DNA from: a virus
UHGV virus genome: UHGV-2152145
Reading direction: 5' to 3' (one strand)
DNA: 10,830 nt
Numbering within the stretch: position 1 is the first letter of the stretch; every line of letters starts with the position of its first letter. The notes beneath the pieces were generated by a model. It was not told where the DNA came from. It did not search any database and saw only the letters and a list, made by a program, of their open reading frames with translations. This document shows positions 1,009 through 10,830 of this stretch, one piece after another. The position numbers and the translations under genes were made by a program.

Positions 1009-1503
1009 ATGAATAACAGCAGCAATACCACAAACCGTAATACGTCTTCACCCGTTGAGTCAGCCTGTCATGCGTTACTGGATTTTATTGCCCGGGAAGT
1101 CTTTGAGAATAAAGCATCGGAAGAGGATGTCAGGGAGCGTTGCAAAGTATTTACAGCGCTGCTTAACGAAGGATTTAAAGCCCTGCTTGATGAGTCAGGG
1201 CTGAATCTGTCGAATCTTCGTAAACAGTGTAAGGAACTGGAATCTCAGATAACCAGACTGGATTCTCAGTCCGACGCTATTTGTCGCAGAAGCGCTCAAA
1301 TTGAACGCTTCATTGGCCACCATTTACCTTTTTTTGATTTGAACAAAGTTTCTGGTACTGCCAGTCAGTCATGTGAACCAGCGCCTTCTCCGGCTCAGTC
1401 GGCTGTGTCCAGTAGTCAGCCCAGTAATCTGTCAGAGCAAGGGACATCTCTGCGGGGGTCATCTGCTCAACCGTTGCCGGGAGCCAGTGATGCTGATGAA
1501 TAA
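1009..1503 (+). CDS. Hypothetical protein, predicted coiled-coil core with Ser/Pro/Gln-rich low-complexity C-terminal tail
   Basis: ATG at 1009 is preceded by GAAGGA (995-1000) at 8-nt spacing; the ORF-track start at 910 has no RBS. The central region (LRKQCKELESQITRLDSQ) looks helical/coiled-coil. The last ~190 nt overlap the minus-strand ORF 1310..1783, so the 3' portion is uncertain. Confidence 0.5.
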   Translation: MNNSSNTTNRNTSSPVESACHALLDFIAREVFENKASEEDVRERCKVFTALLNEGFKALLDESGLNLSNLRKQCKELESQITRLDSQSDAICRRSAQIERFIGHHLPFFDLNKVSGTASQSCEPAPSPAQSAVSSSQPSNLSEQGTSLRGSSAQPLPGASDADE

Positions 1504-1783
1504 GAGCAAACTTAACGGCTTGTTGAATGCTGATACTGTTATCGTCCAGAAAAAACCAGCGACGGCTGTTAATCAGCCAGTGTCCGAGCCAGCAAAGTCG
1601 GTAAGCGAGCTTCTGGTCAGCCCCGGGAAAGATTTCAGTTCCCTGGTCAAAGAAGGTTTTACAACGTTCCACATCGTCGGTGCTCATGCCTCCGGCTTTC
1701 CAGTTTTCATAATATTTTGCCATGTTGCCATCCTCATCATGGTTGTTATCAATGCCGGACGGCAGTTGTTTTTCTGTATTCAT
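1310..1783 (-). CDS. Possible divergent minus-strand ORF (157 aa) initiating inside repeat copy 1; uncertain
   Basis: The minus-strand ATG (complement of 1781-1783) is preceded by AAGGAG at ~7-nt spacing. The first 11 codons (MNTEKQLPSGI) are identical to those of minus ORF 2669..3064 because they lie within the repeat. The product is Trp/Tyr-rich and protein-like, but it overlaps the 3' end of + CDS 1009..1503, and antisense ORFs of this size are common in this window. Confidence 0.3.
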   Translation of the reverse strand: MNTEKQLPSGIDNNHDEDGNMAKYYENWKAGGMSTDDVERCKTFFDQGTEIFPGADQKLAYRLCWLGHWLINSRRWFFLDDNSISIQQAVKFALIHQHHWLPATVEQMTPAEMSLALTDYWADYWTQPTEPEKALVHMTDWQYQKLCSNQKKVNGGQ

Positions 1784-2010: not shown

Positions 2011-2913
2011 ATGTCTTCCTCAGTGAAATATTCTCCGGTTCCGGCGGTGTTAACCCGCCCTGAATTGCTGGCTGAACTGAACCTGCTGATGACCCGGATT
2101 GCCAGTGGGTGTCGTGTGGGGGTTCCGGCGTCATGTCGTCCGGTCATTGCGGTGCACGGTGGTTATGTTTCATACAGTTCTCCACGCGCCGGACGTGTTT
2201 TTCAGGACGGTTCCCGCCCGGAGATAGTGATGGCCGTCAGTAACCGGGAACGGATGTGCGAATGGTTCAGTCAGGTCTGGCTTCCGCTGCATCTGGCTGC
2301 CCTTGAAGGCGATGAGAGTGCTTTTTTCAGTGCGGAGGTCAACATGGTGCGCCGCGAGCTGCAGCGCGTTCCGGGGAATTCAATGAACTGCATGTGCTGG
2401 GCAAGCCTTGCTGCACTGGCATTTGATGCTGAAGAGCGGGTGGAACGGCAGAAAGGCAATAATGAGAACATCGCAACATATGATGAGAGCATCGCAACAT
2501 ATGCATTCCGTGCTGCCTGTACTGTGAGTCTCTGTCTGAGCCGGAATGTTTCCGGAGGTATTCCGCGCTCATACCCTGAATGGAAAGCGATTTTATTTCC
2601 CCGTGATGGTGCTGACATTTTCCCCGACGGGTGGCTGGAAAATATGACCCGTCGGGCTGAACGTGTCTTTACGAGTGCGAAACGTCAGTGTGGAATGCTC
2701 TCAGCCAGTCAGGCAGCGCTTTTTTCTCAACAAACACGTCAGTGTGCCAGTGAGCAATGCTCCGGCCGTATTCAGGCCGGCAGTCATCATTCAGGGAGCC
2801 ACCCTGACGTTTCAGCTTATGAAGTACGCTGTGCACAAGAAATGTCGCTTTCACCGGTCCATTCGACCCGACAGTGTTCAGTTCAATCCACTGATTCTGC
2901 TGAAACGGAGTGA
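2011..2913 (+). CDS. Hypothetical protein (300 aa), no recognisable domain; flanked on both sides by the 206-bp repeat
   Basis: ATG 2011 is preceded by GGAGGTG (1999-2005) at 5-6 nt spacing, directly downstream of repeat copy 1. Contains an in-frame 21-bp tandem duplication (2464..2505) and a Cys/Ser/Gln-rich C-terminal ~80 aa that looks low-complexity. The 3' end overlaps minus ORF 2669..3064. Confidence 0.5.
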   Translation: MSSSVKYSPVPAVLTRPELLAELNLLMTRIASGCRVGVPASCRPVIAVHGGYVSYSSPRAGRVFQDGSRPEIVMAVSNRERMCEWFSQVWLPLHLAALEGDESAFFSAEVNMVRRELQRVPGNSMNCMCWASLAALAFDAEERVERQKGNNENIATYDESIATYAFRAACTVSLCLSRNVSGGIPRSYPEWKAILFPRDGADIFPDGWLENMTRRAERVFTSAKRQCGMLSASQAALFSQQTRQCASEQCSGRIQAGSHHSGSHPDVSAYEVRCAQEMSLSPVHSTRQCSVQSTDSAETE

Positions 2914-3064
2914 AAGGATGAGCCGATTCAATACAGTTCGGGGGGAAGGGGTTACAGAGCCCGTCTTTTTCCGTCATGACCTTTCCGTTACTCAGCAGCC
3001 AGAACTGCTGGGTGTATTTCACTTCAGATCCAATGCCGGACGGCAGTTGTTTTTCTGTATTCAT
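2669..3064 (-). CDS. Possible divergent minus-strand ORF (131 aa) initiating inside repeat copy 2; uncertain
   Basis: The minus-strand ATG at 3062-3064 is preceded by AAAGGA. It shares only the first 11 residues with ORF 1310..1783 and then diverges completely. It overlaps the 3' low-complexity tail of + CDS 2011..2913. Confidence 0.25.
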   Translation of the reverse strand: MNTEKQLPSGIGSEVKYTQQFWLLSNGKVMTEKDGLCNPFPPNCIESAHPFTPFQQNQWIELNTVGSNGPVKATFLVHSVLHKLKRQGGSLNDDCRPEYGRSIAHWHTDVFVEKKALPDWLRAFHTDVSHS

Positions 3065-3237
3065 AAAGTTTTTCCTTTAAATCAGATTGTTATGAATGAG
3101 CGAATGCTGTCCGTACCTTCAGACCGGGGGCGGCAAACTTACCGGTCTGAAAACGTACAGGCAGTTATGGGCATTTTATGCCCTGCAACTGTTCGTCCGG
3201 CACCCTTTTTCCTTTTTTCACATAGCCGGGTTTCCGG
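3032..3237. repeat. Copy 2 of the ~206-bp direct repeat, immediately upstream of dnaB
   Basis: Same element as 1751..1956. Contains GGGCATTTTATGCCC (3169..3183) and the perfect 9-bp inverted repeat TCAGACCGG-N14-CCGGTCTGA (3119..3150). The dnaB RBS GGGAGG and ATG 3261 follow about 20 bp after the repeat ends. Confidence 0.9.
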
Positions 3238-3260
3238 CAGTCAGAGAGGGAGGATACACC

Positions 3261-6985: not shown

Positions 6986-7560
6986 GTAACAACTTGTCAC
7001 AGGCCACCAACGGGCTGTTGATGCAACTGGTGATGGATCTCAAGAGTGGCTATCTGCGGCGATGTGAAGCACTGGGGCTTTCCCGGGAAGAAATGCAGAT
7101 GCTGCAGGGGCTGAGCATTGAAGAAATTCACTATCTGTCAAATTCAGAAGTGTCGGTGCTGCGGCTGGATATTAACCACAACAATCTTGTGCGCATGTTG
7201 CAGCAGGCGCGGACTGAACAGAAACGTCTGCAGCGAATCGATCGCGCTCTGGCGCTGGGGGGCTCTATCGAACTCATGGCGTTTTATTTTGGTCTTTCCA
7301 GCGTGGATGTGGCTGCGCGGCGTCGTATCTCCGGTATTGATGTTCGTCCCGGAAGGGGGATCACCCTGAGTGACGATGAGAATTCTGAACTCTGGCGGTT
7401 GTGGCAGAAAGCCGGGATCAATGATGTGGAGAGTGTGGACGGGCTGGATGTCATGATGCTTTGTGCTGAACAGATGAACATTCCACTGACGGCCATCTGG
7501 CATGCCGTCAGAGGGTGGCATACAACCGGAAATCCGGATCAGGTAAGGAGCGCGTCATGA
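6982..7560 (+). CDS. Hypothetical protein (192 aa), part of the coupled operon
   Basis: ATG 6982 overlaps the upstream stop (ATGA) and is preceded by GGAGGTGAGG. Composition is protein-like with no motif I can name with confidence. Confidence 0.6.
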   Translation: MSNNLSQATNGLLMQLVMDLKSGYLRRCEALGLSREEMQMLQGLSIEEIHYLSNSEVSVLRLDINHNNLVRMLQQARTEQKRLQRIDRALALGGSIELMAFYFGLSSVDVAARRRISGIDVRPGRGITLSDDENSELWRLWQKAGINDVESVDGLDVMMLCAEQMNIPLTAIWHAVRGWHTTGNPDQVRSAS

Positions 7561-7805
7561 AGATGACAGAACTGGTTCCCGGAGTGCTGACAAGTCCGGG
7601 CGTCCCTCCCGCCAGTCAGCGTAAGGCGGTTGAACTGGTCAATCGCTTCCGTCGTGGAGAGCGGAATTATCATGAACTGAAGGAAAGGGGATTTGGTTAT
7701 TTCAAGATTGATGTTGGTCCTGACTGGCGGTTACTGAGCCGGAATAAAGGGCTGACCTGGGCCCTGTTGAGTCATGAACGATACAACAACATGAGACTGA
7801 AGTGA
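7557..7805 (+). CDS. Small hypothetical protein (82 aa); weak resemblance to HigB/RelE-superfamily toxin C-terminal core
   Basis: ATG 7557 overlaps the upstream stop (ATGA) and follows AAGGAG (7545-7550). The C-terminal half GFGYFKIDVGPDWRLLSRNKGLTWALLSHERYNN resembles the HigB-like pattern (Gxxxxxi.V...WRl....followed by an aromatic/His near the C-terminus). This is a by-eye pattern match only. Confidence 0.5.
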   Translation: MKMTELVPGVLTSPGVPPASQRKAVELVNRFRRGERNYHELKERGFGYFKIDVGPDWRLLSRNKGLTWALLSHERYNNMRLK

Positions 7806-7814
7806 GGTGGAAAG

Positions 7815-8072
7815 ATGAGTAATGCAGCAAGACTCCAGCTGGGTTTTTCTCCGTTTTCAAAAACTATCGTGCTGGCAAAAATGCGTAATCTTGACGACGG
7901 AACCAGTCTTCGTGTCGGTAATGATCCCGGCCGCGATGTAACCAATGAGGCGGCTCAGCTTGTCTGGCATCTGGTCATGGCAGAAGGTGGTGAAATTATG
8001 TGGGAAATGGACGATGGCTCCCGCATGGTGCTGAAGGCTGAAAGTCAGGAGGCAACCAGTGAGCAAGATTAA
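7815..8072 (+). CDS. Small acidic hypothetical protein (85 aa)
   Basis: ATG 7815 is preceded by GAGGTGG (7803-7809). No HTH or other recognisable motif. The 3' end overlaps the next gene start by 14 nt. Confidence 0.5.
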   Translation: MSNAARLQLGFSPFSKTIVLAKMRNLDDGTSLRVGNDPGRDVTNEAAQLVWHLVMAEGGEIMWEMDDGSRMVLKAESQEATSEQD

Positions 8073-8727
8073 CTACCAGGCACTGCGTGAGGCGGCAGAG
8101 CAGGCAATGCATGACGACTGGGGATTTGACACGGATCTTTTCCATGAGCTGGTAACACCATCGATTGTGCAGGCACTGCTGGATGAACGGGAAGCCAAAA
8201 GCAAACTCCTGGCCGAACTGGACGCTAATTTATCCGAACTGGAGGCTGTTTTATCGGCGATGGGCGAAGAGCTCCAGAAAGCGACTGAGTCAATTGAGCG
8301 GGCTGATGCGGCTGCTACGTTGGCACACGAGACGTTTTCGGCGCTGGCGGCGGAGAATGCGATACTGAAGACAGCACTTCCTCAACCATTCGGACCTGAA
8401 ATGATGAAGGCTCTTGATGCGTATGAGAAGCACCAGGATGAAGTACCAGAGGCAGGAATGCTCAATGCATTTTTCATCTTACGCGACAGCATCTGTGTTG
8501 AAACCCCAGCCACCGATGCTTTCCTGGCTGAAGTACGGGCGCAGGGGGGGGATGCTGCTATAGAAGCTGCAAAAAATCTGGTGGCTCAGGAATATGAGTA
8601 TAAGGATTTCAAAGCGGCGCAGAGTGATTGCTGTATGTTTCCTGGTTCAGACTTGGTAGGGAAGGTTGAAATGACCGAGTGGTTAGTTGACTTTGCCGCA
8701 GAGCTTCGCAAAGGAGGCAACCAGTGA
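8059..8727 (+). CDS. Hypothetical coiled-coil protein (222 aa); shares its RBS and first ~12 codons with the next gene
   Basis: GTG 8059 is preceded by AGGAGG (8047-8052). The N-terminus MSKINYQALREAAEQA is near-identical to the start of 8724..9458; from memory this resembles ead/Ea22-like prophage proteins. The central region is helical/coiled-coil in character. Confidence 0.6.
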   Translation: MSKINYQALREAAEQAMHDDWGFDTDLFHELVTPSIVQALLDEREAKSKLLAELDANLSELEAVLSAMGEELQKATESIERADAAATLAHETFSALAAENAILKTALPQPFGPEMMKALDAYEKHQDEVPEAGMLNAFFILRDSICVETPATDAFLAEVRAQGGDAAIEAAKNLVAQEYEYKDFKAAQSDCCMFPGSDLVGKVEMTEWLVDFAAELRKGGNQ

Positions 8728-9458
8728 ACAAGATTGACTATCAGGCACTGCGTAAGGCAGCACAAAACTATCAGTCGACGCTGGCGTGGTATCAGTCCAT
8801 CCCGGACAGCCCAAATGCTGAACGGGATTGTGATGCGGCTCTGGCTGCGTTTAAGCATCACATCCGTCATCGGGAAGTGGATATTATCTCCGGGCTGTTG
8901 GATGAGCTGGACGAAAAACAGCAATACATTAAATCCCGCGACCAGGAGAATGAGGATATTGCTCTTACGGTTGGGAAGCTGAGAGTTGAGCTTGAGGAAG
9001 TAAAACAACACGCTGAAGAATTATCCGAAACCAACGCTGTTCGTAACCAATGGCGGCCAGATATTTGCCCAATAACCGGACGTGCATTTTTCATGTGGAT
9101 TGAGCATCCGACATTGGGAAATGTGCCGACGTATGGTGGCCCATTAGACAGTTACACCATTCCAACAAAGGACGGTGACGGTGAGTTTTCATGTGAGCGT
9201 TACGATCATGATTTCGGCGGTTGGGTAGAAAGCGAATGTCCTGGGTTATATCTGATTGATGATAAAGAACAATGCAGAGTCTACGAACTGGAGGAACGAG
9301 TTAAGGAACTGGATGCTCGGGAAATATCGCTCCCGGAACGTAGCAGTATGCTTCATCGAACAGATTTTAACGAGGCTTACCACACGGTAATGGCATACAA
9401 AGTTTCTGAAGTCATCGCTGCAATCCGCGTCGCTGGCATTCGCATCAAAGGAGAGTGA
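8724..9458 (+). CDS. Hypothetical protein (244 aa), mosaic: head shared with 8059..8727, tail shared with 10391..10606
   Basis: GTG 8724 is preceded by AAGGAGG (8711-8717). N-terminus MNKIDYQALRKAA; C-terminus ...AAIRVAGIRIKGE matches the C-terminus ...CTAAGIRIKGEQVK of 10391..10606. Overlaps the upstream stop by 4 nt. Confidence 0.6.
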   Translation: MNKIDYQALRKAAQNYQSTLAWYQSIPDSPNAERDCDAALAAFKHHIRHREVDIISGLLDELDEKQQYIKSRDQENEDIALTVGKLRVELEEVKQHAEELSETNAVRNQWRPDICPITGRAFFMWIEHPTLGNVPTYGGPLDSYTIPTKDGDGEFSCERYDHDFGGWVESECPGLYLIDDKEQCRVYELEERVKELDAREISLPERSSMLHRTDFNEAYHTVMAYKVSEVIAAIRVAGIRIKGE

Positions 9459-9459
9459 T

Positions 9460-9975
9460 ATGGCGTTAACACACCGCGAACTCTGTCAGATTGCGTACAA
9501 GTTCCTTAAGCGCAACGGGTTCAAGGTTTGCTTTCATGACCGCTTTATAGCTGTAACCAGCACTGGAGAACAGCCAGATGCTATGGGATTCAGAAATTCA
9601 GCATCATGCCTGATAGAGGTGAAGTGTTCTCGTTCTGATTTGTTGGCAGATAGAAAAAAGCGTTTCCGTAAAAATCCCTCTCTTGGCATGGGCGACTGGC
9701 GATTCTTTATTAGTGAGCCGGGAATTATTTCAGTTGAGGATTTACCTCCTGGCTGGGGATTACTTCACGTTGTTAACGGAAGAGTTCGGAAAGTACATGG
9801 ATGGCCCAGGGGTAATTGCTGTTGGGGTAATCCTGACGATAAGCCATTTACCGGGAATAAGCAGGTTGAATGCGATTACATGTTATCTGCATTAAGGCGG
9901 ATGGAGTTGAGAGGGCACCTTAATGAAATATATGACGGTGTAATTGTTAATAAGAAAGAAGGAAACGCGGCATGA
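9460..9975 (+). CDS. Candidate PD-(D/E)xK-fold nuclease (171 aa); visibly more AT-rich than its neighbours
   Basis: Motif arrangement GEQPDAMGF...(about 10 aa)...CLIEVKCS fits the PD-(D/E)xK core (PD, then hydrophobic strand ending E-x-K), with an upstream acidic residue in HRELCQ. ATG 9460 follows AAGGAG. By eye the composition is AT-richer than the flanking core genes. Confidence 0.55.
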   Translation: MALTHRELCQIAYKFLKRNGFKVCFHDRFIAVTSTGEQPDAMGFRNSASCLIEVKCSRSDLLADRKKRFRKNPSLGMGDWRFFISEPGIISVEDLPPGWGLLHVVNGRVRKVHGWPRGNCCWGNPDDKPFTGNKQVECDYMLSALRRMELRGHLNEIYDGVIVNKKEGNAA

Positions 9976-10394
9976 TCACTATTACCAAAGGACGACTGCT
10001 GACAATCAGGCAGTGGCGCGAAACATACGGACCGGGTAGCAACGTTGTACTGCCAGCAGAAGAAGCGGAAGAACTGGCGCGGATTGCCCTGGCGTCGCTG
10101 GAAGCCGAGCCGGTTGGTGAGTTTTATGAATACAAACCGGGTGACTGGTATCAGCGTTCGGTCGGGGATAAAGCGCCAAAGTGGACACCACTCTACGCTG
10201 TGCCACCAGTGCTTGTGGCACCTGAAGGACTGGTTAAGGCTGTGCGCTTTTATGAACAGGTTAAGCGTGAAAATCCGCCAGTCGAAACCGGAGCATGGAA
10301 AGACGCTGTTGACTGGGTATTACAGGAAGCATGTCAGGCTGTTCATTGGTGCCGACAGATATCAGACCTTCAGGAACAGGAGAATCATTCATGA
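9972..10394 (+). CDS. Hypothetical protein (140 aa)
   Basis: ATG 9972 overlaps the upstream stop (ATGA) and is preceded by GAAGGAAA. No recognisable motif. Confidence 0.55.
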   Translation: MITITKGRLLTIRQWRETYGPGSNVVLPAEEAEELARIALASLEAEPVGEFYEYKPGDWYQRSVGDKAPKWTPLYAVPPVLVAPEGLVKAVRFYEQVKRENPPVETGAWKDAVDWVLQEACQAVHWCRQISDLQEQENHS

Positions 10395-10606
10395 GAAAAA
10401 TCAGTGGAATGTTGAATCTGGAGAAGGCCAGGATGCAGTTGCGTGTTTTGTTATCTGGACCTGTTCCTGCAATCACTCCGATGGCGCATGCCGTGGCAAT
10501 AAAAGTTGTGCTTGATGCTCTGGATGCTAGTGAGCGGAGGGTGGCTGAACTGGAACAGGTCTGTACTGCCGCGGGGATTCGTATCAAAGGGGAACAAGTG
10601 AAATGA
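10391..10606 (+). CDS. Small hypothetical protein (71 aa) with C-terminal AGIRIKGE tail shared with 8724..9458
   Basis: ATG 10391 overlaps the upstream stop (ATGA) and follows AGGAG. The ORF-track start at 10331 lies inside the upstream gene with no RBS. The C-terminal ~15 aa and their nucleotides resemble the 3' end of 8724..9458. Confidence 0.5.
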   Translation: MRKISGMLNLEKARMQLRVLLSGPVPAITPMAHAVAIKVVLDALDASERRVAELEQVCTAAGIRIKGEQVK

Positions 10607-10830
10607 AACTGAAAATGCAGACAATTTCGGGTCCTGTGATTATCGACAGTAATGAGGTGACACAGTTTTACCCGGACCATGAAAGTGGAGGGGAACTCAC
10701 CGCTGTTGAATACTTTACTGACGAGGGAAGATGCACCACCCGGGTACGCCATTCCTTTTATCAGGTTGCTGAGGCACTTGCCAGTGCATGGCATGTGGAT
10801 GATGCATCAAAAAGGAATCGCCGTGGATAA
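10603..10830 (+). CDS. Small hypothetical protein (75 aa)
   Basis: ATG 10603 overlaps the upstream stop (ATGA) and is preceded by AAGGGGAA. Stop TAA falls at the window end (10828-10830). Confidence 0.5.
   Translation: MKLKMQTISGPVIIDSNEVTQFYPDHESGGELTAVEYFTDEGRCTTRVRHSFYQVAEALASAWHVDDASKRNRRG

Follow-up and report, generated by a model that had tools for sequence, protein, structure and literature searches.

The predicted nuclease gene and its operon

The DNA analysed here, referred to throughout as the window, is the 10,830-nucleotide stretch UHGV-2152145, and it corresponds to the left (replication/partition) end of an integrative conjugative element (ICE) of the SPI-7/PFGI-1 type in Escherichia coli. 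The gene under study is an intact open reading frame (ORF) of 516 nucleotides on the plus strand at positions 9460-9975, which encodes a 171-residue MmcB-like protein with a predicted PD-(D/E)xK nuclease fold. Annotated close copies of the ICE displayed the following gene order: (i) integrase, ParA, dnaB-PI, ParB, DUF2786, DUF2857, ParE-like and DUF7446; (ii) one or more Ead/Ea22-like genes, the nuclease ORF, small ORFs and a STY4528-family replication protein; and (iii) a PFL_4669 protein, topoisomerase III, STY4534 and ssb. Within the ICE, the nuclease gene lies with dnaB/parB on one side and the STY4528 replication gene, topB and ssb on the other.

All genes between approximately 3100 and 10830 are carried on the plus strand, and many of them are joined by stop/start overlaps. 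A Shine-Dalgarno-like GGAG read from the sequence (9450-9453, plus strand) is situated 6 nucleotides 5' of the ATG of the nuclease gene and within the end of the upstream gene, whose stop codon occupies 9456-9458. The stop codon of the nuclease ORF overlaps the next start in an ATGA tetranucleotide (9972-9975), and further ATGA overlaps were found at 10391-10394 and 10603-10606. This arrangement showed that the nuclease gene is translationally coupled within the long rightward operon of the ICE, in which it is an internal cistron of the early/replication operon. Promoter-like and terminator-like sites in 7400-10830 were not in excess over shuffled expectation, no promoter-like site was found near the nuclease gene, and an Rfam search matched no family. 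No LexA-box-like site was detected upstream of the gene, and the count of such sites was within chance. The only perfect CTGT-N8-ACAG match is the LexA-box-like palindrome CTGTGATTATCGACAG at 10634-10649, inside ORF 10603..10830 and downstream of the nuclease gene, approximately 250 nucleotides ahead of the STY4528-family replication gene of related ICEs; about 0.15-0.2 exact matches would be expected by chance, so that a single one is not far from a chance result.

The ratio dN/dS of the nuclease gene was 0.07-0.08 against the copies from an Stx1 phage and from phage P7, and synonymous sites were already saturated when the gene was set against relatives of 90% amino-acid identity. As judged from these comparisons the gene is under strong purifying selection, and the value of 0.07 identifies ORF 9460..9975 as a real gene. 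The opposing view, of a pseudogene in decay or a spurious ORF, could draw on the annotation pipeline PGAP, which labels 99.8%-identical ICE copies as a frameshifted pseudogene followed by a second short coding sequence; however, each of these copies has the full-length 516-nucleotide ORF, with a single substitution (S59A) relative to the window. Taken with the low dN/dS, a family of 3,148 cluster representatives (at E<=0.001) and a confident fold prediction, the intact S59A copies led us to reject this view, to which we give hardly any credence. The copies described as frameshifted in RefSeq/PGAP are at L001 12001-12516, L003 10449-10964 and L005 9694-9872. Several names given to homologues in the databases were likewise found to be unsupported, including "minor tail protein" (P7 RefSeq), "adenylosuccinate synthase" (phiARM81mr) and "structural protein" (Vibrio phage H20).

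A remote sister clade of MmcB

An earlier note on this DNA had pointed to a PD...E-V-K arrangement in the product and, on that basis, had proposed a restriction-endonuclease-like fold. The motif is present: the protein reads ...GEQ-P39-D40-AMGFRNSASCLI-E53-V54-K55-CSRSD... Pfam, NCBIfam and PADLOC yielded no hit for the protein, and a single-sequence phmmer search against the PDB returned only noise. In PHROGs, the protein belongs to families 9263 (E 8e-122) and 631, both of "unknown function", and gave a weak match (4e-4) to a "DNA repair protein" family. Among 1.84 billion cluster representatives, a search with a profile recovered 3,148 relatives at E<=0.001, 2,400 of them at E<=1e-10; the family is large. 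For the analysis of conservation we aligned 98 representatives with 33-58% identity to the nuclease protein. Residues D40, D60, G78 and R81 are invariant in this alignment, and H5, E37, P39, E53, K55, S57, R58, D64, K67 and R70 are at least 90% conserved.

The structure predicted by AlphaFold2 from 41 homologues (pLDDT 85, pTM 0.79) displayed a helix at residues 5-18, strands at 22-25, 41-45 and 48-54, a helix at 58-64 and a strand at 80-85, which is the alpha-beta-beta-beta-alpha-beta core of the PD-(D/E)xK enzymes. The nuclease-fold call of the earlier note hence withstood a fold prediction. In the model, D40 lies just ahead of the second strand (41-45), while E53 is in the third strand (48-54) and is followed by K55, so that the conserved residues occupy the catalytic layout of this superfamily, with D at strand 2 and (D/E)xK on strand 3; D40 being invariant and E53 and K55 at least 90% conserved among the 98 divergent relatives, the conservation of the D/E/K residues also bears out the call. 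Conservation was thus shown for the predicted catalytic residues D40, E53 and K55, together with E37 and an acidic residue at position 27. On the strength of the conservation, the model and the alignment with MmcB, the predicted active-site codons are 9568-9570 for E37, 9574-9579 for P39-D40 and 9616-9624 for E53-V54-K55 (9568-9624 overall, plus strand).

The top structural neighbour of the model was the MmcB-like structure 3dnx, followed by restriction enzymes, Can2, Hjc, VRR-NUC and NucS, and several of the fold matches in BFVD were proteins of phages that bear the name "MmcB-like DNA repair protein". The structure 3dnx (SPO1766 of Ruegeria pomeroyi) is the one given for DUF1052/PF06319 in a survey of the PD-(D/E)XK superfamily (PMC3424549), and its sequence family is annotated as "MmcB family DNA repair protein" with PF06319. 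The profile of the 98 relatives found 3dnx among PDB sequences at E 1.1e-5, and HHalign of this profile against 28 true MmcB proteins gave 98.3% probability and E 2.3e-14 over 124 columns. In this alignment, the D, E-x-K, S-R-x-D-F-x-x-D, LP..GLL and C-terminal A-x-R-R-L elements are in register, and the predicted active-site residues of the nuclease align with D39 and E53-C54-K55 of the MmcB proteins. MmcB was one of several types named in the earlier note, and by this profile-profile comparison it proved to be the nearest family.

The gathering threshold of PF06319 (22 bits) was not reached by the nuclease protein or by its P7 copy, neither of which gave a match at E<=1; 21 of the 98 relatives match PF06319, all at E 3e-4 or worse. 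A homologue on an Acinetobacter plasmid that is 34% identical to the nuclease (BLASTP 3e-21) does pass the threshold, at 24.4 bits. The nuclease protein is accordingly a remote, mobile-element-borne sister clade of PF06319, homologous to the family and below its curated threshold, and we hold the fold and the homology as assigned to be very probably correct.

From the nearest known family, MmcB (PF06319, formerly DUF1052, with 3dnx and Caulobacter crescentus MmcB as members), the clade differs in several respects. Apart from falling below the Pfam gathering score, the nuclease has an extra insertion of approximately seven residues (KxFRxxPxxGMG) and a longer region ahead of the last helices, and E37 is conserved in the nuclease clade but not in MmcB. 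The clade is borne on phages, plasmids and ICEs of gamma-proteobacteria and others, whereas MmcB is chromosomal, SOS-regulated and mostly alpha-proteobacterial (PMC3424549; PMC9578287), and the nuclease gene lacks an upstream LexA box. The archaeal Holliday-junction resolvase Hjc (PF01870) and the small PD-(D/E)xK nucleases related to it (YraN/UPF0102, VRR-NUC and AHJR-like) are far more distant than MmcB, with no Pfam match.

The same comparisons bear on the proposal that the nuclease is an Hjc-type Holliday-junction or branch resolvase serving phage or ICE recombination. Sub-threshold Pfam matches to Hjc occurred in 41 of the 98 relatives, the profile matched Hjc chains at E ~0.1, Hjc structures were among the fold matches, and in Stx phages the gene is located downstream of exo/bet/gam. 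Neither a score at the PF01870 threshold (21.1 bits) nor a close structural match to Hjc was obtained, and the extra beta-hairpin and C-terminal helices of the nuclease protein are common to 3dnx and not to Hjc. We regard an Hjc-type resolvase as improbable, and MmcB stands as the closest relative.

A phage-derived cassette in the ICE

The gene had been described in the earlier note as more AT-rich than its flanks, and this was confirmed on measurement: its GC content is 0.450, as against 0.482 for the upstream gene, 0.525 for the downstream gene and 0.518 for the window. At the 2nd percentile of all 516-nucleotide windows of this DNA, and with a difference of approximately 7 points, the AT-richness is real but modest. 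The low-GC zone begins near 8850, within the upstream gene. Low GC as an intrinsic trait of the family was considered and rejected, the mean difference between gene and flanks at 33 other loci being +0.008.

Nucleotide similarity between the window and phages is confined to 8899-10116 (plus strand), a cassette in which the nuclease gene is preceded by the 3' part of the second Ead/Ea22-like gene and followed by the first ~48 codons of ORF 9972..10394. Over this segment the identity is 95.3% to phage P7 (upf88.3-upf89.0-upf89.5) and 94-96% to Stx phages. The GC content of the cassette is 0.473, as compared with 0.527 for the sequence that precedes the Ead region, and the nuclease gene at 0.45 equals its surroundings in the phages (0.46-0.47).

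A related ICE, that of E. coli 2015C-3121 (L042), has BLAST matches to the window at 7751-8371, 8501-8998 and 10220-10830 only, from which it follows that it lacks the segment 8999-10219 (plus strand), having 261 bp instead. Over the compared flanking segments this ICE is 92.6-97.2% identical to the window, and its gene order is DUF7446, Ead, Ead, a 216-nucleotide ORF, a 228-nucleotide ORF and STY4528. The more distant ICE of NC101 has one short Ead gene at the same place, and only 46 genomes carried the ICE backbone and the nuclease gene within ~1.7 kb of each other. The left junction is near 8899-8998, inside an Ead/Ea22-like gene of the ICE. This is the upstream gene at 8724-9458 (plus strand; Pfam PF13935, E 1e-17), the second of two tandem paralogues, whose 3' half belongs to the phage cassette. 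The right junction is inside ORF 9972..10394, where identity to the phages ends at 10116 and identity to L042 resumes at 10220.

These data showed that the gene entered a SPI-7-type ICE within a cassette of ~1.2 kb from the early (exo-xis-type) region of lambdoid/P1-like phages. The identity to P7 and Stx phages, the existence of a near-identical ICE without the cassette and a GC content equal to that of the phage surroundings together support the suggestion in the earlier note that the gene is acquired cargo. A uniform base composition would have told against that suggestion; the GC content was found to be non-uniform, with a dip that coincides with the phage cassette.

The related ICEs have one, two or three Ead genes at this locus, and a 51-nucleotide repeat (90% identical; 8047-8097 and 8712-8762) spans the ribosome-binding site, the GTG start and the first codons of both tandem Ead/Ea22-like genes. 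The repeat and the varying gene number make the Ead heads look like a recombination hotspot, at which phage-derived cassettes appear to be swapped in and out. The C-terminal peptide AGIRIKGE of the second Ead/Ea22-like protein (8724..9458; codons at 9432-9458) recurs near the end of the 71-residue product of ORF 10391..10606, which reads ...AAGIRIKGEQVK at 10565-10606; this recurrence is another sign of shuffled Ead modules.

The downstream ORF 9972..10394 (plus strand; 140 residues; PHROG 660) is itself a mosaic, since the right junction of the cassette lies inside it. Its head (to 10116, ~48 codons) is common to phage DUF551-type proteins, while the protein itself gave no Pfam match, to DUF551 or otherwise; its middle ~100 nucleotides have another origin; and its tail (10220-10394, ~58 codons) corresponds, in L042, the ICE without the nuclease, to the 3' terminus of an Ead/Ea22-like gene. 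At this ORF, RefSeq annotates only pseudogene fragments. The two small ORFs that follow, 10391..10606 and 10603..10830 (together 10391-10830, plus strand), belong to the ICE lineage and lie outside the cassette, being present beside Ead genes in the ICE without the nuclease; neither had a match in Pfam, NCBIfam or PADLOC.

The tight spacing of these genes had suggested that the nuclease could form a small system with its neighbours, and in this reading it would be the effector of a defence, exclusion or toxin system together with the downstream ORFs 9972..10830. PD-(D/E)xK domains are common defence effectors, Can2/Card1-type nucleases were among the fold matches, and the ATGA start/stop overlaps along 9460..10830 are indeed present, but such overlaps occur throughout the operon. 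To examine the neighbours, we recorded the two nearest co-directional ORFs on each side of relatives with at least ~43% identity, which gave 118 ORFs at 33 loci, in genomes of 33 species. No dominant partner emerged, the commonest neighbour family accounting for 7 of the 118: counts were 7 for Ead/Ea22, 7 in total for DNA methyltransferases, 4 for DUF551 and 2 for NinG, with single cases of RusA, RdgC, replication protein O and others. Partners differ among the Stx phage, P7, IncF, pND6-2, Vi01 and Xanthomonas contexts, and because the neighbours vary across the 33 genomes a small system is not supported. Furthermore, PADLOC-DB 2.0 returned zero families at E<=1 for the four proteins starting at 9460, 9972, 10391 and 10603, no sensor domain was found, ORF 9972..10394 is made of pieces common to other genes, and ORFs 10391..10606 and 10603..10830 exist in an ICE that has no nuclease. 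We therefore consider such a system quite improbable.

Elsewhere in the window, a direct repeat of 222 nucleotides (1750-1971 and 3031-3252; 90% identical, 1281 nucleotides apart) lies directly 5' of ORF 2011..2913 and of the dnaB-PI gene, and gives near-identical N-termini to the minus-strand ORFs 1310..1783 and 2669..3064. Possibly, a leader or regulatory region of the ICE replication module has been duplicated here.

Distribution and proposed role of the nuclease

A survey of complete E. coli genomes found an identical or near-identical gene in 931 of 5,426 (17%), mostly in prophages, with 250 of the places on plasmids; the exact sequence occurs on 78 contigs. In Stx1- and Stx2-converting phages the copies are 97-98% identical and lie in the pL operon, downstream of the gam-bet-exo and exo-xis genes, where an Ead/Ea22-like gene and a DUF551 gene flank them. 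The P7 copy is upf89.0, near humD, with Upf88.3 and Upf89.5 as neighbours. P7 Upf89.0 and the Stx1/Stx2-phage protein (e.g., AU5Stx1 gp12) have the same length as the ICE protein, 97-98% amino-acid identity to it, the same PHROG families (9263/631) and the same Ead/Ea22-like flank and DUF551-type head; the ICE copy, however, is in a replication/partition operon, whereas the phage copies are in the pL operon or in the C1-controlled operon of P7.

Relatives were found in further contexts. A relative on pND6-2 has rdgC, dcm, ssb and umuDC nearby, and one on a Xanthomonas plasmid has topoisomerase and dcm neighbours. In IncF leading regions, a 69%-identical paralogue lies between psiA and hok and was found in 153 E. 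coli genomes. On the E. coli plasmid pTW11681_100 (L044, 10668-11186) this paralogue is an optional insert between psiA and hok/DUF5431 in an F-like leading region, and most plasmids that bear psiA are without it. The homologue of phage Vi01 (L047, 3980-4597) is directly upstream of the DNA primase gene, with whose start it shares its last base, and a homologue stands upstream of primase in other Vi01-like virulent Ackermannviridae too. The tblastn similarity of the Vi01 homologue covers only query residues ~4-113, and the annotated Vi01 protein has 205 residues. Overall, the gene and its relatives were shown to recur in those modules of phages, plasmids and ICEs that are expressed first or process DNA. 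The papers on the exo-xis region mention neither the nuclease ORF nor any nuclease, and the paper on leading regions (PMC11541004) does not name the nuclease family.

Our proposal for the function draws on MmcB, for which the background comes from a review and a preprint. In Caulobacter, MmcB is described as an endonuclease of the PD-(D/E)XK type that confers protection from mitomycin C and cisplatin; it has been linked to translesion synthesis and proposed as a partner of translesion polymerases in crosslink repair (PMC9578287). By analogy with the role proposed for it, the protein studied here would be a metal-dependent DNA endonuclease with a single domain of the PD-(D/E)xK fold, representing a large mobile-element clade that is a remote sister of MmcB (PF06319). 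Instead of degrading bulk DNA, the enzyme would cut the element's own DNA where this is damaged or branched, for example at crosslinks, lesions, stalled forks and recombination intermediates, and would do so at the time of induction, transfer or the start of replication of the element, which would let replication, translesion synthesis or recombination proceed. An indiscriminate DNase is unlikely, because the gene is stably carried on plasmids, ICEs and temperate phages. The relatives that lie beside DNA-processing genes (in the Stx pL operon, P7, pND6-2, IncF, Vi01 and the ICE) provide the genomic context for this proposal. The combined statement, that an MmcB-like nuclease processes damaged or branched DNA of the element, seems to us somewhat more probable than its negation; for the role taken alone, an endonuclease acting on such DNA, we would put the chance, by analogy, at about even or slightly below.

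Several observations weigh against this proposal. The protein passes no Pfam or NCBIfam threshold, and every source names the members of the clade "hypothetical". The nuclease gene is unlike Caulobacter mmcB in that it does not appear to be a stand-alone SOS gene, neither a LexA box nor a promoter having been found upstream. The tie to repair and translesion-synthesis genes consists of a few loci and not of a statistical enrichment, and the commonest neighbours in the 33 genomes, Ead/Ea22 and orphan DNA methyltransferases, would be just as compatible with a role in anti-defence or establishment.

Such a role is the main rival: the nuclease would be an establishment or anti-defence factor, made first upon DNA entry or induction, that inactivates a defence of the host or a mobile element in competition with its own; its target could be, for instance, a nucleic acid used in defence, a signalling molecule or the DNA of the rival. 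Anti-defence genes are reported to cluster in leading regions (PMC11541004), and the position of the 69% paralogue between psiA and hok would suit this role, as would the early pL/exo-xis placement in phages and the orphan DNA methyltransferases among the most frequent neighbours. Set against these points, the nuclease has no similarity to known defence or anti-defence proteins, including any in PADLOC; its nearest family is a DNA-repair nuclease; the same contexts also contain replication and repair genes; and in a virulent phage the gene is part of the replication module, adjoining primase. We consider an anti-defence role unlikely, albeit less so than an Hjc-type resolvase, and retain the processing of the element's own DNA as the preferred reading. 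A broader idea, to which we likewise accord a low probability, is that the mobile-element MmcB-like clade, which has thousands of sequence clusters but lacks a curated model, is a shared "first-in" establishment factor of phages (from the early pL operon), conjugative plasmids (from the leading region next to psiA/psiB) and ICEs, acting upon DNA entry or induction; it could be either a new type of anti-defence nuclease or a processor of the incoming or damaged DNA of the element.

The gene is already present many times in databases as a "hypothetical protein", and the fold family and distant relatives labelled MmcB-like were known as well. What is added here is the assignment of the phage/plasmid/ICE clade to the MmcB lineage, with its predicted catalytic residues, the boundaries of the cassette in this ICE and the recurring placement in early modules. 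The locus is a clean example of a phage early-region cassette that was recombined into an ICE at Ead/Ea22-like genes. For a gene that is widespread in Stx1/Stx2 phages, P1/P7-type phage-plasmids, IncF leading regions and SPI-7-type ICEs, the assignment to the MmcB lineage offers a concrete, testable biochemical function with named predicted catalytic residues in place of a hypothetical label. The standard way to induce Stx prophages is with mitomycin C, and since MmcB is tied to tolerance of damage by this compound, an early MmcB-like nuclease could affect phage yield, and hence toxin output, after DNA damage. If the clade does act as a "first-in" factor, it would be an unrecognised determinant of the induction yield of Stx phages and of plasmid and ICE transfer.
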